DNA of 64,000 nucleotides, taken from Pseudomonadota bacterium (GTDB lineage: Bacteria > Bdellovibrionota_G > JALEGL01 > DATDPG01). Made by a program: the position numbers and the translations under genes. The DNA lies in the NCBI GenBank assembly GCA_043809315.1, contig JAZDDX010000017.1, positions 32,001-96,000 of the forward strand, given 5' to 3'. This document shows positions 986 to 34,933 of the stretch, one piece after another (positions within the stretch are counted from its first letter, which is position 1; the number at the start of each line of letters is the position of its first letter). The notes beneath the pieces are model-generated. The model did no database searches. It was given only the letters and a program-made list of their open reading frames with translations, and was not told where the DNA came from.

Positions 986-1002
986 TGGCGGAGAGGGGGG
1001 GA
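986..1002 (-). repeat. att core copy: 3' end of tRNA-Ser (left end of island C)
   Basis: TGGCGGAGAGGGGGGGA is identical to 34840-34856, the tRNA-Ser 3' end. Confidence 0.9.
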
Positions 1003-1152
1003 AGCTGCTCCGCCCCTCGTAACTACGCAAGAAAACAGAAAAAATCTATCACATCAACGGGCTAGCAATCCTTCAATATCATCCGAGTACATCCGTTTAC
1101 ACGCATTTACAGGGTCACCTGTTACCCAACTGTTACCCTAAAGGTGGCCTAA

Positions 1153-2271
1153 TCAGAGTTTGAGTTGCAGCTGGGCGCGGACCTGGTGGTCGAGTTCGTC
1201 CTTCCCCGCCGCTAGACCGTCCTTCACCGTCAGGGCGCTGTAATCGAGCTGCAACTTCAACTGGTGCCCGTTATAGAAGAAGTAGTTCACTCCGGCCGTG
1301 TACTCCCCGAGGTCCTTGGCCGATTCCGCGTAGATATGTGCGAGACGCAGGCCGAACTCCAGCTTCTCGGGAATCACGAAATAGCCGGCTTGCGCCAGAA
1401 ATCCCCTGTCATCCATCGCGGGGCCGGTTTGAGGGTTGACTTGCTGGGAGAGATAGGCGGCGTGAAATCCGAGACCGTGGTATTTCGCGCTGGCATCCGC
1501 CGTAAGAGAGGTGACTTTCTTGGTCGTGGTGGGAGTCGTCTTTCCTGCCGGGATGGTAGCCGGGTCGGGGGTGTCATTGTACATGCCCCCCACGGCCAAA
1601 GCGACCTGAGGTTTCTGACTGTTCTTCGTATCTGAGAACTCCATTCCGTGTTCGCCGGCGACGTTCCAGATGAATCGCCAGGCGTATCGGAGCGCTTTAT
1701 TCTGATTGAGCGTATTCAACCCTTCGCCATTGAATGCTCCCACGTTGTATTCGAATCGTCGGTTCAATAAGAGCCCATTGAACCCGGCTCCCGGCTCACG
1801 TTCGTCCGAGACTCCAAAGAACGGGAACACGATCGAACGATCCACGAACTGCAGTGTCGAGCTCGAAGCGGCCTGTTCGAGGGAGAAAGGAACGTGGTAC
1901 TGGCCGAAGCGGAACTTCAGCGCGTCCGACTGAACCAGCTGAACCGACGCCTCCATCAACTTGCTCACGGCCCAGTCGTATTCCACCTCGTATTGAACAT
2001 CCTTGCTGAAGAAATACCCGGACCAGATGAATCGTGCCCGTCGGATCCGGAACGTGCGCGTCTCCGCCCGGCTGTCCGGGAACTTGTTGTCGAAATACGG
2101 CTGCAGATAACCTCTCAGGACGAGCTTGAAGTTTTTGTCGGCCGTTTCGATGAAGAACCCTTTGTCGTACCCGACGCTGGGTAGCGCACTTGGGGCTGCC
2201 TCCTCGGAGCGGGCCGTTGGAGCCCATATCGCACATACCAAGAGCAGTCCCAGAAGCGTTCGTTTATTCAT
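1153..2271 (-). CDS. Phosphate-selective porin (OprO/OprP family)
   Basis: Signal peptide, FRIRRARF motif, GQYHVPFSLEQ..SS..LQFVDRS motif, beta-barrel-like C-terminus; lies downstream of the pst genes. Confidence 0.85.
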   Translation of the reverse strand: MNKRTLLGLLLVCAIWAPTARSEEAAPSALPSVGYDKGFFIETADKNFKLVLRGYLQPYFDNKFPDSRAETRTFRIRRARFIWSGYFFSKDVQYEVEYDWAVSKLMEASVQLVQSDALKFRFGQYHVPFSLEQAASSSTLQFVDRSIVFPFFGVSDEREPGAGFNGLLLNRRFEYNVGAFNGEGLNTLNQNKALRYAWRFIWNVAGEHGMEFSDTKNSQKPQVALAVGGMYNDTPDPATIPAGKTTPTTTKKVTSLTADASAKYHGLGFHAAYLSQQVNPQTGPAMDDRGFLAQAGYFVIPEKLEFGLRLAHIYAESAKDLGEYTAGVNYFFYNGHQLKLQLDYSALTVKDGLAAGKDELDHQVRAQLQLKL

Positions 2272-2307
2272 TCGTCTCCCTTCGCTCCGGGGAAATACCG
2301 GACGATG

Positions 2308-2323
2308 ATTAACGTTTGATAAA
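2308..2323 (-). promoter_or_regulatory. Putative Pho box upstream of the porin
   Basis: Minus strand TTTAT-N6-TTAAT, 11-bp period. Confidence 0.5.
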
Positions 2324-2331
2324 GAGCGGGC

Positions 2332-33900: not shown

Positions 33901-34193
33901 CCGTGTCCGAGGAGGATGGCGAAGTGCATCTTCAGGTCACCGATAACGGGCCGGGGATTCCATTGGGGAACCAGCCGTACATTTTTGAGGCGTTCTTCAC
34001 GACCAAAGGACCGGGCGCGGGAACGGGGCTCGGCTTGTATGTTGCCAAACGGATCGTGGAGTATCATCGCGGAGCGATTCGGGTGCATTCCGAGGAAGGG
34101 CGTGGTGCGATCTTCACGATTCGCCTGAAGAAGGTTCCGGACTTGCAGAATCGGGAAACGATCGACTTCAAGGGTTTTCCGGTCTCATTCTAG
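30993..34193 (+). CDS. Hybrid sensor kinase: extracellular sugar-binding-like domain, 7TM, HisKA-HATPase, REC, second HisKA-HATPase
   Basis: LVLGRIGDSD..IGATG..RVYEVP beta-sandwich; about 7 TMs; LSHDFKTP; IVEDN..SDLMMPRMDG..YVTKP; LAHEMRNP; GTGLGL. Confidence 0.9.
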   Translation: MPRRGNLFVEITFWVCLLAILVPRIALEVAERRLSSAVRGSLENGWRLSGSGGGEQEVAVPGDLRQTGSSSLHWIYKRSIDTAELRRYERPALVLGRIGDSDSVDLSGCRIGATGINANGGQRGYWWSVLRVYEVPDRCLQSRGQQTLQVNVWKWWGSGFGIFSGPVGIGEYEELAPSARLVEALRFTTLLVFGFVLLVVSAYYGFVYFLVPVRTHNGIFAITAAFLGGFEILTSTYPFRWIDRPWFFYWFLLASAGGSAALTLRFLQVRLGALPRRFVRGFEAITIGAVIVAAVGLRPDFTYRIYLIWQAIFILGFLVAYGFVVRSWLKGKQSTNWRYLLGFSLLVLSAVHDVVITRLGAGKPYLIPYGFMAFGVAAALSLAKEYADAFLNVERQVSDRTKDLAVANEHLRSLEQMKARFFANLSHDFKTPIALAFAHVSEAKREAGVSLRGALGAAEQALNRLQGMVLDLLDTMRAESGALKFTWETVSAAAIVRTWAAPYQILCDKKGLTLSLDISVDEDLKVPMDVSKMERVFGNLMANALKFTDEGGITVGLRMDASQIYLEVSDTGPGIPVEEREKVFDRYFQGDSTSVRDHGGSGIGLSFVKETVLAQNGRVWVEGAETHGSRFVVALPLSQDVEITGEHRISEADIRTEAVKGSVDVPYPDPTPSEPRVDWPSILIVEDNPEVAQVVVHTLEDLYNIYFAKDGLEGLDQLKTRKIDCIVSDLMMPRMDGRTFLKEVKKNDRWKVIPFVCLTSMSDMEILIECLQLGANNYVTKPFHREVLRSTVATLIQNAQFREQLIAKDKMASLGLLSAGLAHEMRNPIQAAQNLLEGLRRKFERWEKMDPADLAAVQGEMRVLVDKDSIVHEAFRDIRNCVLRINNMVDAIGTYSTGSTRLTEIDLTETVQDSLKLLENKRKEKNVAVHWAADQIVKVQAFPTISQAITNILDNAIDAVPAETGEVTVTVSEEDGEVHLQVTDNGPGIPLGNQPYIFEAFFTTKGPGAGTGLGLYVAKRIVEYHRGAIRVHSEEGRGAIFTIRLKKVPDLQNRETIDFKGFPVSF

Positions 34194-34205
34194 GGGAGGT
34201 TCGAC

Positions 34206-34739
34206 ATGGAAACGAAAGACAAGTTCCGGGTTCTGGTGATCGACGATGAGAAGGAGATCATCCACGGCTTTAAGCTGGCCTTCGAAAATGAATGGGAAGT
34301 CGAGGGGATAACGCATCCGGACGAACTCAAGAACGATATGAAGGGGGGCTTCCGGAAGTTCCAGCTGTTCGACCTCATATTCTTGGATCTCCTGTTCGAC
34401 GCCCGGATGCAGGTCACCCAGCAGAACGTCGTCGACAAGATCACTCGAGGGGACCTCCTTGGCATTCAGTTCTTGGACTGGTTGGGAAAGAACTACTCCT
34501 GCCCCGTGGTTGTTTTGAGCGGTTTCTTGTTCGACGCCGTCACTGAGAAACTACAGGCGGCCTACCCGTACCTGCTTCTCAAGCCGAAACCGGTGGATCT
34601 TTACGCCCGCGAATTCCAGGGGAACATGGAGCACTACGCACGGACGTTTTACCGGTTCAAGCGGGAGATGCTGTTCGACCGGCCGGCGGAAGAATTGCTG
34701 AGGAAGTTCGACGAGGCGATGGGGAAGAAGCCCTCTTGA
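34206..34739 (+). CDS. Stand-alone response regulator receiver protein
   Basis: VLVIDDE, IFLDL, VLSG, KPKP; no recognisable output domain; GGAGG RBS. Confidence 0.8.
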   Translation: METKDKFRVLVIDDEKEIIHGFKLAFENEWEVEGITHPDELKNDMKGGFRKFQLFDLIFLDLLFDARMQVTQQNVVDKITRGDLLGIQFLDWLGKNYSCPVVVLSGFLFDAVTEKLQAAYPYLLLKPKPVDLYAREFQGNMEHYARTFYRFKREMLFDRPAEELLRKFDEAMGKKPS

Positions 34740-34839
34740 AACCAGCTTACCGGCGTTTTGGGGCGGTGTTCCGCAAAGTTCCGCAAATCCGGGTGTCGGG
34801 CTGTTCGGTTCGAATGATTTCCGGGGCTTAAAAATAAAA

Positions 34840-34933
34840 TGGCGGAGAGGGGGGGATTCGAACCCCCGGTACGGCGTTTAAACCGTACGGCGGTTTAGCA
34901 AACCGCTGCCTTAAGCCACTCGGCCACCTCTCC
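34840..34933 (-). tRNA. tRNA-Ser(GCT)
   Basis: GGAGAGG acceptor stem, anticodon arm GCGGT-TTGCTAA-ACCGC, long variable arm, GGTTCGAATCC T-arm, encoded CCA. Confidence 0.97.

Follow-up and report, generated by a model that had tools for sequence, protein, structure and literature searches.

In a window of 64,000 nucleotides from an uncultured Bdellovibrio-like bacterium (assembly GCA_043809315.1, contig JAZDDX010000017.1, positions 32,001 to 96,000), three genomic islands, called C, B and A in this order, lie head to tail behind one tRNA-Ser(GCT) gene. This array is very probably the result of tandem accretion, that is, of three site-specific integrative elements inserted successively into the 3′ end of a single tRNA gene. 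The reading is based on four exact copies of the attachment (att) core with the tRNA left intact, on blocks of arm words that match each other within island A and within island B, and on island cargo that is not syntenic core in relatives. The components of the array, in window coordinates, are as follows:

986-1001, plus strand: outermost displaced core, marking the distal limit of island C and of the whole array (exact match)
1002-10889, no strand assigned: island C, integrase-less (Pfam, tblastn, alignments)
10890-10905, plus strand: core copy between islands C and B (exact match)
10906-27702, no strand assigned: island B, the only autonomous-looking element (Pfam, PHROGs)
27703-27718, plus strand: core copy between islands B and A (exact match)
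27719-34839, no strand assigned: island A, integrase-less, with complete type-II att arms at both ends (Pfam, tblastn)
34840-34933, minus strand: tRNA-Ser(GCT), the sole tRNA in the window and the single gene of this isoacceptor in the assembly (ARAGORN)

The tRNA-Ser(GCT) Target and the Boundaries of the Array

The att core corresponds to the 3′-terminal 16 nt of the tRNA (34840-34855), whose plus-strand reading is TGGCGGAGAGGGGGGG, and is composed of CCA, the discriminator, the 7-nt 3′ strand of the acceptor stem and the 5-nt 3′ strand of the T-stem. Exact copies are found at 986, 10890, 27703 and 34840, against an expected number of 0.19 and with none of 100 shuffles reaching four, and the whole assembly (2.42 Mb in 44 contigs) holds no copies beyond these. 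An earlier reading of the same letters (hereafter the original prediction) had reported that the tRNA 3′ end recurs at 986, 10890 and 27703; these copies proved exact and withstood the shuffle test, the tRNA itself being the fourth. Its central proposal, a tandem array of site-specific islands at the 3′ end of a tRNA, is likewise borne out by the four cores and the intact gene. It had also deduced integration of the 3′-end type. In agreement with this, all three displaced copies cease to match the tRNA at the T-loop; the core at 27703, in addition, is followed by a degenerate copy of the T-arm (GGGGGGG TATCGAAAAT CCCCCCC), and with the left end of island A continuing in this way a crossover in the T-loop or at the junction is equally possible; the deduction is nevertheless a fair one.

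Outside the array, the flanking DNA matches that of relatives in the tRNA only, and the linkage of this tRNA to dnaX is conserved in four of five relatives. In these five, neither the flanking open reading frame (ORF) at 34981-36336 nor a 339-aa ORF of the left flank finds a match. The former, located on the minus strand between the tRNA and dnaX, encodes 451 aa and has no Pfam or NCBIfam match. A fourth island on the left was considered and rejected, as no credible further core occurs within 33 kb even with up to three mismatches allowed.

Arm Words at Fixed Distances from the Core

Next to the cores, the islands carry short paired words and IHF-like words whose positions, counted from the first base of the core, vary by hardly a base pair:

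1052-1064, plus strand: IHF-like word CATCAACGGGCTA, at +66 of the core at 986 (island C; sequence match)
1120-1141, plus strand: type-I arm pair TGTTACCCAAC / TGTTACCCTAA, 11-bp spacing, at +134 (island C; sequence match, alignment)
10956-10968, plus strand: IHF-like word AATCAATGGCTTG, at +66 (island B), the sole one of the window's three that fully fits WATCAANNNNTTR
11023-11044, plus strand: distal arm block of island B, CGTTACCGGAATGCAACCGAAA, at +133 (sequence match)
26322-26342, plus strand: proximal arm block of island B, TGTAACCGGATGCAACCGAAA, 10-bp spacing, at -73 from the core after removal of an insertion sequence (IS)
26387-27686, plus strand: ISL3-family IS of 1300 bp, separating the arm pair of island B from the core (Pfam, sequence)
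27769-27781, plus strand: IHF-like word CATCAAACCGTTA, at +66 (island A; sequence match)
27836-27857, plus strand: type-II distal arm pair TGTTCCGCAGA / TGTTCCGCAAG, 11-bp spacing, at +133 (island A; sequence match)
34767-34787, plus strand: type-II proximal arm pair TGTTCCGCAAA / GTTCCGCAAAT, 10-bp spacing, at -73 (island A; sequence match)

In island A, TGTTCCGCA is present twice at the far (left) end (27836/27847) and GTTCCGCAAA twice at the tRNA-near end (from 34767/34768), 73 bp before the core. All four arm words are intact and correspond to GTTCCGCA, and the longest exact word shared by the two ends measures 10 nt, a length reached by 2 of 2000 shuffles. In island B, the distal words CGTTACCGG/TGCAACCGA (11023/11034) match each other at five of nine positions, the proximal words are TGTAACCGGA/TGCAACCGAA (26322/26332), and the two ends are identical at 20 of 21 positions when a single gap of 1 nt is allowed (11024-11044 versus 26323-26342).

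The IS that lies between the proximal words of island B and the core encodes a transposase (26472-27647) matching PF01610 (DDE_Tnp_ISL3, E 2.9e-59), with an N-terminal zinc ribbon (PF14690, E 6e-10). It is bounded by imperfect terminal inverted repeats of about 24 bp, starting GGCTCT, and by an 8-bp target duplication, GGACTTAA, at 26379-26386 and 27687-27694. When the IS and one duplication (1308 bp together) are removed, the pair at 26322 stands exactly 73 bp before the core; this value, already part of the original prediction, was obtained again on recomputation. The ISL3 insertion has probably locked island B in place and should block its excision.

In island C, TGTTACCC is found twice at the far (left) end (1120/1131). 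This end is a type-I att arm, and its context is about 75-81% identical to the left ends of elements at the tRNA-Ser(TGA) and tRNA-Ser(GGA) genes; the right end retains the core-proximal end motif only. In other words, all the motifs named beforehand (IHF-like words at +66, left pairs and right pairs) could be located where they had been placed, and the claim that left and right pairs match within each island holds for B and, through its 10-nt word, for A; in C, for which no right pair had been named, none is present.

Matched tandem pairs on both att arms, as found in A and B, are what would be expected of lambda-type arm sites, and from this arrangement we infer that the paired words are probably arm-type sites bound by the N-terminal domain of the integrase. 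It would be very improbable, in our judgement, that they are instead iterons or operators for some other protein of the elements, such as a RepO-like initiator, a directionality factor or a regulator. That idea could draw on the distal pair of B, located 16 bp before a RepO-like gene, on further direct repeats between +90 and +130, and on the repeats near fic in island C, which proved to be part of the conserved upstream region of that gene and not arms. However, pairs occur in elements devoid of RepO (island A and the elements at tRNA-Ser(GGA)), they stand 5-7 bp past the integrase stop in most integrase-bearing junctions, and they are found at both ends in direct orientation, with fixed spacings of 10 and 11 bp, co-varying with the integrase clade.

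Three further features of the att regions were observed. A motif close to AATGATTTCnnGGnnnTTAnAA is located 8-33 bp outside the core and is kept at the right ends of elements whatever the tRNA target (34815-34839, 27678-27702 together with 26360-26386, and 10865-10889, as well as loci of relatives); it is present even at the arm-less right end of island C and could serve as a site of the core type or for an accessory factor. Immediately outside the core, A and B share 13 nt (CTTAAAAATAAAA) without a mismatch, their arms being otherwise unrelated. Lastly, the interval from the IHF-like word to the distal pair contains further short direct repeats, such as CATCCG and TTTACA, each twice, in C (1090-1119) and CCGCCC twice in A (27790-27830); these are possible candidates for directionality-factor sites.

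Islands at the Other tRNA-Ser Genes

All four tRNA-Ser genes of the genome are accompanied by displaced copies of their own 16-nt 3′ end. Besides the GCT gene described above, these are:

tRNA-Ser(TGA): two displaced copies
tRNA-Ser(GGA): two to three displaced copies
tRNA-Ser(CGA): one displaced copy, at the end of another contig

The arm words of the islands at these genes fall into the following types:

Arm type I, TGTTACC: left end of island C; both ends of the integrase-bearing tRNA-Ser(TGA) element; both ends of a 3-kb integrase-less tRNA-Ser(GGA) element
Arm type II, GTTCCGCA: both ends of island A; both ends of an integrase-less tRNA-Ser(GGA) element with a paralogous kinase module
Arm type II′, GTTCCACA: both ends of the tRNA-Ser(CGA) element
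Arm type III, TGTAACCGG / TGCAACCGA: island B

In this genome, a 10-bp-spaced pair starts at -72 to -74 at all six arm-bearing proximal ends, and an 11-bp-spaced pair at +132 to +134 in all seven left ends. The same seven all have ATCA at +67 to +70, and the IHF-like words begin at +66 in all three left ends of the window. An all-against-all comparison of seven left with seven right ends gave longest shared exact words of 10-12 nt for ends of one arm type and of 4-7 nt for ends of different types; the remaining att DNA is, between arm types, at random level (53-57% identity versus 51 +/- 2 in shuffled sequences). A genome-wide search for arm words in tandem at 9-12 bp spacing returned pairs confined to tRNA-Ser junctions: three tandem pairs among 168 matches for GTTCCGCA, five among 63 for TGTTACC and one among 59 for GTTCCACA. 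The words share a common theme, TGTNNCC, recognizable in TGTTACC, TGTAACCGG and TGTTCCGCA; as variants of one theme, they leave room for cross-recognition.

With C7:1-38310 and C17:1-911 included, the genome holds at least eight islands of this element family, at least three of which are integrase-less yet att-complete.

The Integrase of Island B and Its Family

Island B combines replication genes at its left end, an integrase at its right end and a cargo of osmotic and ion functions in between. Its genes encode a RepO-like initiator, a Replic_Relax protein, a ClC channel, an OtsA-OtsB fusion, a GH15 protein, a LysR regulator, two Na+/H+ antiporters, a DUF2062 protein and the integrase, followed by the ISL3 insertion. 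The features that bear on mobility are:

11060-12064, plus strand: RepO-like gene, adjoining the distal arm (Pfam, PHROGs)
12068-13006, plus strand: Replic_Relax gene (Pfam, PHROGs)
25043-26317, plus strand: tyrosine integrase IntB (PF00589, E 9.2e-22, over the cut-off; phrog_1)

Among the 35 ORFs scanned with Pfam, the one at 25043-26317 alone encodes a tyrosine recombinase. In its database form the protein starts at 25094 and counts 407 aa, and its gene terminates 5 bp ahead of the proximal arm pair. An alignment of 14 members of the family displays the invariant columns R262, K303, H367, R370, H393 and Y402, and a profile search of the PDB with IntB matches integrases and Xer proteins. At the edge of another contig (C33:3-281), a second RepO-like gene, 72% identical to that of B over 93 aa, suggests another B-like element elsewhere in the genome.

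The same genome encodes other members of the family. IntT, 69% identical to IntB, adjoins tRNA-Ser(TGA) and has type-I arms; Int_CGA, a C-terminal fragment at the edge of contig C7, adjoins tRNA-Ser(CGA) and has type-II′ arms (GTTCCACAAA); a third member, 27% identical, adjoins tRNA-Asp. Homologues in relatives are 32-42% identical and adjoin tRNA-Leu, Met, Pro and Ser genes. In 15 of 19 junctions, two tandem words that match each other at 8 or more of 10 positions stand at -72 to -75, usually 5-7 bp past the integrase stop, three of these 15 being near-identical copies from two related genomes. The other four comprise one junction with no pair, one with a 7/10 pair at -78 where CCA is not encoded, and the right ends of island C and of the outer tRNA-Ser(TGA) island. 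In the complete islands of relatives, a distal pair at +128 to +134, matching or resembling the proximal word, occurs in five of six, and an IHF-like word at +66 in four of six (in one of these at +64, with CCA not encoded). The geometry is thus kept to the base pair across integrases 27-90% identical and six kinds of tRNA target.

Arm word and integrase, judged from these sequences, travel together. Specifically, genome G001, from another genus, carries a 90%-identical integrase fragment whose arm words equal those of B over both 10-nt words, and contig C3 of genome G003 (G003:C3) carries, on a 10-kb tRNA-Leu island with GTTCCGCAA arms on either side, a full integrase of the clade to which Int_CGA is closest (57% identical). 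In the integrase tree, support is 97/96 for L037 with L038 and 100/100 for IntB with IntT. The original prediction of an integrase family that keeps one geometry and changes its arm word is therefore sustained across this genome and its relatives; its extension to the array is not, as the array holds one integrase and not three.

The family is rare in public data and so far confined to Bdellovibrionota-like genomes. A large protein database contains seven proteins at E <= 1e-30; within the phylum, the family is present in 6 of 17 genomes, and a scan of these 17 returned no new members. A contig profile search with the family alignment gave 80 loci, mostly generic tyrosine recombinases, in which L046 and L054 alone match nearly the whole protein (41-42% identity, E 2e-101 and 3e-95), the other 78 lying at 22-33%. 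Type-II arm pairs in at least 119 metagenome stretches were rejected as chance matches: 82 matches in 80 loci came with no tRNA gene and no family integrase. In the stretches around tRNA-Ser sequences of G001, G003, G004 and G014, matches to island proteins are limited, besides the G001 integrase fragment, to one weak antiporter paralogue.

The divergence of the arm words might be adaptive, making co-resident integrases orthogonal and thereby permitting stable stacking at one tRNA, as the original prediction had supposed; we consider this doubtful. Three different arm words are indeed present in one array, att arms of different types are at random-level identity save for motifs at fixed positions, and IntB and IntT, for all their similarity, have different arm words. 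Nevertheless, with a single integrase in the array there is nothing to be orthogonal to. The TGTNNCC theme is shared, the left word of B (CGTTACCGG) overlaps the type-I word TGTTACCG, and the same arm types are found mixed in the arrays next to the GGA and TGA tRNA-Ser genes. Published arrays, as far as the available portions of the reports describe them, need no orthogonality (Islander, PMC4383910; Dehalococcoides, PMC3146451). Repeated integration into a regenerated tRNA explains the stacking without it.

A Possible Mechanism of Integration

In IntB, a SAM-like core-binding domain starts near residue 92 and is preceded by a conserved N-terminal domain of about 90 aa. In a feature search of the ESM Atlas with residues 1-95, 29 of the 30 nearest named clusters were arm-DNA-binding families of integrases (PF02920, PF14657, PF26003 and PF09003; score 0.94-0.95). 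Neither the whole protein nor its N-terminus gave a Pfam match to the Arm-DNA-bind_3 domain (DUF4102) of P4-type integrases. The genome encodes equivalogs of both IHF alpha and IHF beta.

Heterobivalent tyrosine integrases include lambda Int, Tn916 Int and the Int of mycobacteriophage L5. In lambda attP, tandem arm sites occupy the roughly 80 bp that separate the end of the integrase gene from the core; on the opposite side another set of arm sites is located some 130 bp away, with a bend site between it and the core. Judged by its layout, the system described here would be similar, with a PF00589 catalytic domain, candidate arm sites on both sides and a candidate IHF site between the distal set and the core. 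It differs from lambda in that the PDB profile match is restricted to the core-binding/catalytic region (profile positions 179-257), no sequence relation is detectable in the N-terminus, the target is a tRNA 3′ end and no excisionase (Xis) is recognised.

By analogy, the integrase would belong to the lambda-type (heterobivalent) class, its catalytic and core-binding domains acting on the 16-nt core. The N-terminal domain would dock on the two proximal words (-73, 10-bp spacing) beside the integrase stop and, at the far end of attP, on the two distal words (+133, 11-bp spacing), and an IHF-induced bend at +66 would return the far arm to the core. Strand exchange would take place somewhere within the 16 nt, and each insertion would regenerate the tRNA, displacing older elements outward. 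If insertion always targets the intact tRNA, island A, being nearest to it, arrived last.

Islands without an Integrase

Besides a small ORF, island A encodes a methyltransferase of ICMT type, an unknown protein of 672 aa, a hybrid histidine kinase of 1066 aa and a receiver-like protein of 177 aa. Island C carries the genes for a phosphate porin O/P, PstB (two copies), PstA, PstC, PstS and PhoU, together with a PAS/HAMP histidine kinase, an OmpR-type regulator and a Fic/DUF4172 protein. No integrase remnant is detected in either island by tblastn with IntB and its paralogue (E <= 10; 986-10890 and 27703-34840). Both islands are att-bounded and lack recombinase and transfer functions, as the definition of a cis-mobilizable element (CIME) asks, with arms at both ends in A and at one end in C.

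The att left ends of A and of its paralogue at tRNA-Ser(GGA) are 79.5% identical, with cargo proteins only 22-39% identical, and the two elements have a common integrase-less layout, in which a hybrid kinase and a receiver-like gene precede the arm pair. This disparity favours either selection acting on the att sites or the spread of a non-autonomous unit that receives its integrase in trans. Island A could be mobile, we infer, only with a type-II integrase supplied in trans; integrases of the matching type are represented by the fragment at tRNA-Ser(CGA) and by a full gene in a relative.

A further observation concerns the module itself, in which an ICMT-like methyltransferase and a large unknown protein are joined by a hybrid kinase (about 1060 aa, equipped with a second GHKL domain) and a small receiver-like protein. 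The module is present in three paralogous copies (window 28112-34739, C7:7623-15309 and C35:87298-93449), two on att-bounded islands and one not. In relatives of this bacterial family the cluster is chromosomal and found in several copies; in genome G002, the paralogous module has no att alongside.

The PstS-type binding protein of island C is the only one found in the assembly. In five relatives, PstS finds its best matches at 27-29% identity, compared with 61% for dnaX, a core gene in the neighbourhood. The pstCAB-phoU genes, PstS and the two-component pair occupy 2332-9611. Housekeeping-looking phosphate uptake is thus carried by an acquired, now immobile island, itself a chimera or a decayed element. 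Repeats of ATTCTCCGCA and palindromes at 10761-10861 were tried as the missing arms of C and rejected, because they are conserved alongside the fic gene in G003, whose Fic protein is 73% identical to that of island C. The Fic/DUF4172 gene (9650-10861) possesses a conserved upstream region rich in ATTCTCCGCA repeats, plus two palindromes, and in both genomes it adjoins a displaced tRNA 3′ fragment, of tRNA-Ser here and a 12-nt fragment of tRNA-Leu in G003 (contig C3, L140/L141).

Two opposite fates can be envisaged for such islands. On the one hand, A and C could be dead remnants whose integrases were deleted after insertion, with arms that are fossils in an array that is immobile as a whole, a possibility that we rate not far short of an even chance. 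It accords with the lack of integrases in A and C, with the att site of B split by the IS and with the rearranged state of C, which has arms at one end only. A public sequencing run holding 0.36 of the sampled words of 27000-35500 contained no joints, alternative junctions, circles or empty sites; at its very low cover (depth 1-5, short contigs) this result is uninformative. Degenerate elements beside tRNAs are also commonly reported, according to the available part of a preprint on tycheposons (bioRxiv 10.1101/2020.12.28.424599). However, the four arm words of A are intact, and its layout and att similarity shared with the tRNA-Ser(GGA) element are fitted less well by two independent exact deletions.

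On the other hand, the integrase-less islands could be living cassettes, with a few integrases, each with its own arm dialect, serving a larger number of cassettes that are shuffled in trans among the four tRNA-Ser genes; this we advance tentatively, as a rather unlikely alternative. The dialects would be TGTTACC (I), GTTCCRCAA (II) and TGTAACCGG/TGCAACCGA (III), and the cassettes would be island A and two elements at tRNA-Ser(GGA), each having a complete attL and attR of one dialect and a 16-nt core re-tailored to each tRNA. If true, this would amount to a tRNA-anchored, integron-like gene exchange with naturally orthogonal integrase/att pairs.

Points against Tandem Accretion

Accretion by site-specific integration remains the reading that we prefer, and a number of observations weigh against it or against the mechanism attached to it. 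The relatives compared all lie outside the host genus; in favour of the reading, none of them carries the island genes as contiguous core genome, the finding that the original prediction had named as its counter-evidence. Binding at the arm sites, excision and the formation of circles are predictions from the sequence. As to the individual islands, the cargo of A resembles a common chromosomal cluster of the family, and A could therefore be a fossil with its integrase deleted; C has no right-hand arm pair matching the left one. The type-II integrase of this genome amounts to 72 C-terminal residues at a contig edge, and the arms of Int_CGA differ from those of A by one base per word. Regarding the protein, the N-terminal domain has no Pfam match over threshold (PF14657 at E 0.008 in one of eight members), and the Atlas matches share few features (113-131 of 256). 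Small ORFs beside the integrase or the arms gave no family match and no recognisable excisionase, and the full WATCAANNNNTTR consensus of the IHF-like words is met by one of three in the window.

Comparison with Known Systems

Tandem accretion together with CIMEs has a precedent in ICESt1/ICESt3 of Streptococcus thermophilus, which Pavlovic is said to have described in 2004. The ssrA islands of Dehalococcoides also form tandem arrays, and 15 islands without an integration module have been suggested to be CIMEs (PMC3146451). According to the available portion of that report, these islands likewise follow one another head to tail, with a copy of the target 3′ end as the boundary of each, and some keep att only. 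The Dehalococcoides islands employ a serine recombinase at ssrA, whereas here a tyrosine integrase acts at tRNA-Ser; unlike what that portion describes, integrase-less members here possess a full arm architecture, of an arm type other than that of the neighbouring integrase.

The tycheposons of Prochlorococcus, as far as the accessible text of the preprint goes, are inserted repeatedly at one tRNA, with partial tRNA copies in between and remnants beside (bioRxiv 10.1101/2020.12.28.424599). The likeness extends to tRNA-targeting by tyrosine-recombinase elements and to nutrient-uptake cargo, including phosphate assimilation. Host phylum and replication module differ, and arm sites are not mentioned in that text; the two systems are here set side by side by description.

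A broader survey is provided by Islander/TIGER, in which, from the sections available, 125 tandem arrays with at least two members and four with at least three are counted among 3919 islands, and crossovers are classed as located in the anticodon loop, the T loop or the T/acceptor junction (PMC4383910). There too an island consists of a tDNA and a displaced 3′ fragment. As described in those sections, an Islander tandem requires an integrase for each member, and the present array, with one integrase for three islands, would be merged or missed.

The array is therefore a clean case of an already known route of foreign-gene collection, arrays with integrase-less members having been published. 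Particular to it are the rare integrase family, the constant geometry and the presence of such islands at every one of the four tRNA-Ser genes in a small genome.

Significance

The array shows how accessory functions are gained and kept in an uncultured Bdellovibrionota-like bacterium with a small genome (2.4 Mb). The only recognisable Pst/PhoU system found in the assembly, a set for osmoprotection and ion transport, and a large signalling kinase module all reside on islands. With the integrase-less, att-complete islands, a further lineage joins the mounting evidence that cassette arrays anchored at tRNAs are widespread. In addition, the natural series of elements, with a fixed att geometry and a changing arm word, represents material for studying the evolution of arm specificity in heterobivalent integrases, and its members could possibly be used as orthogonal integration tools.

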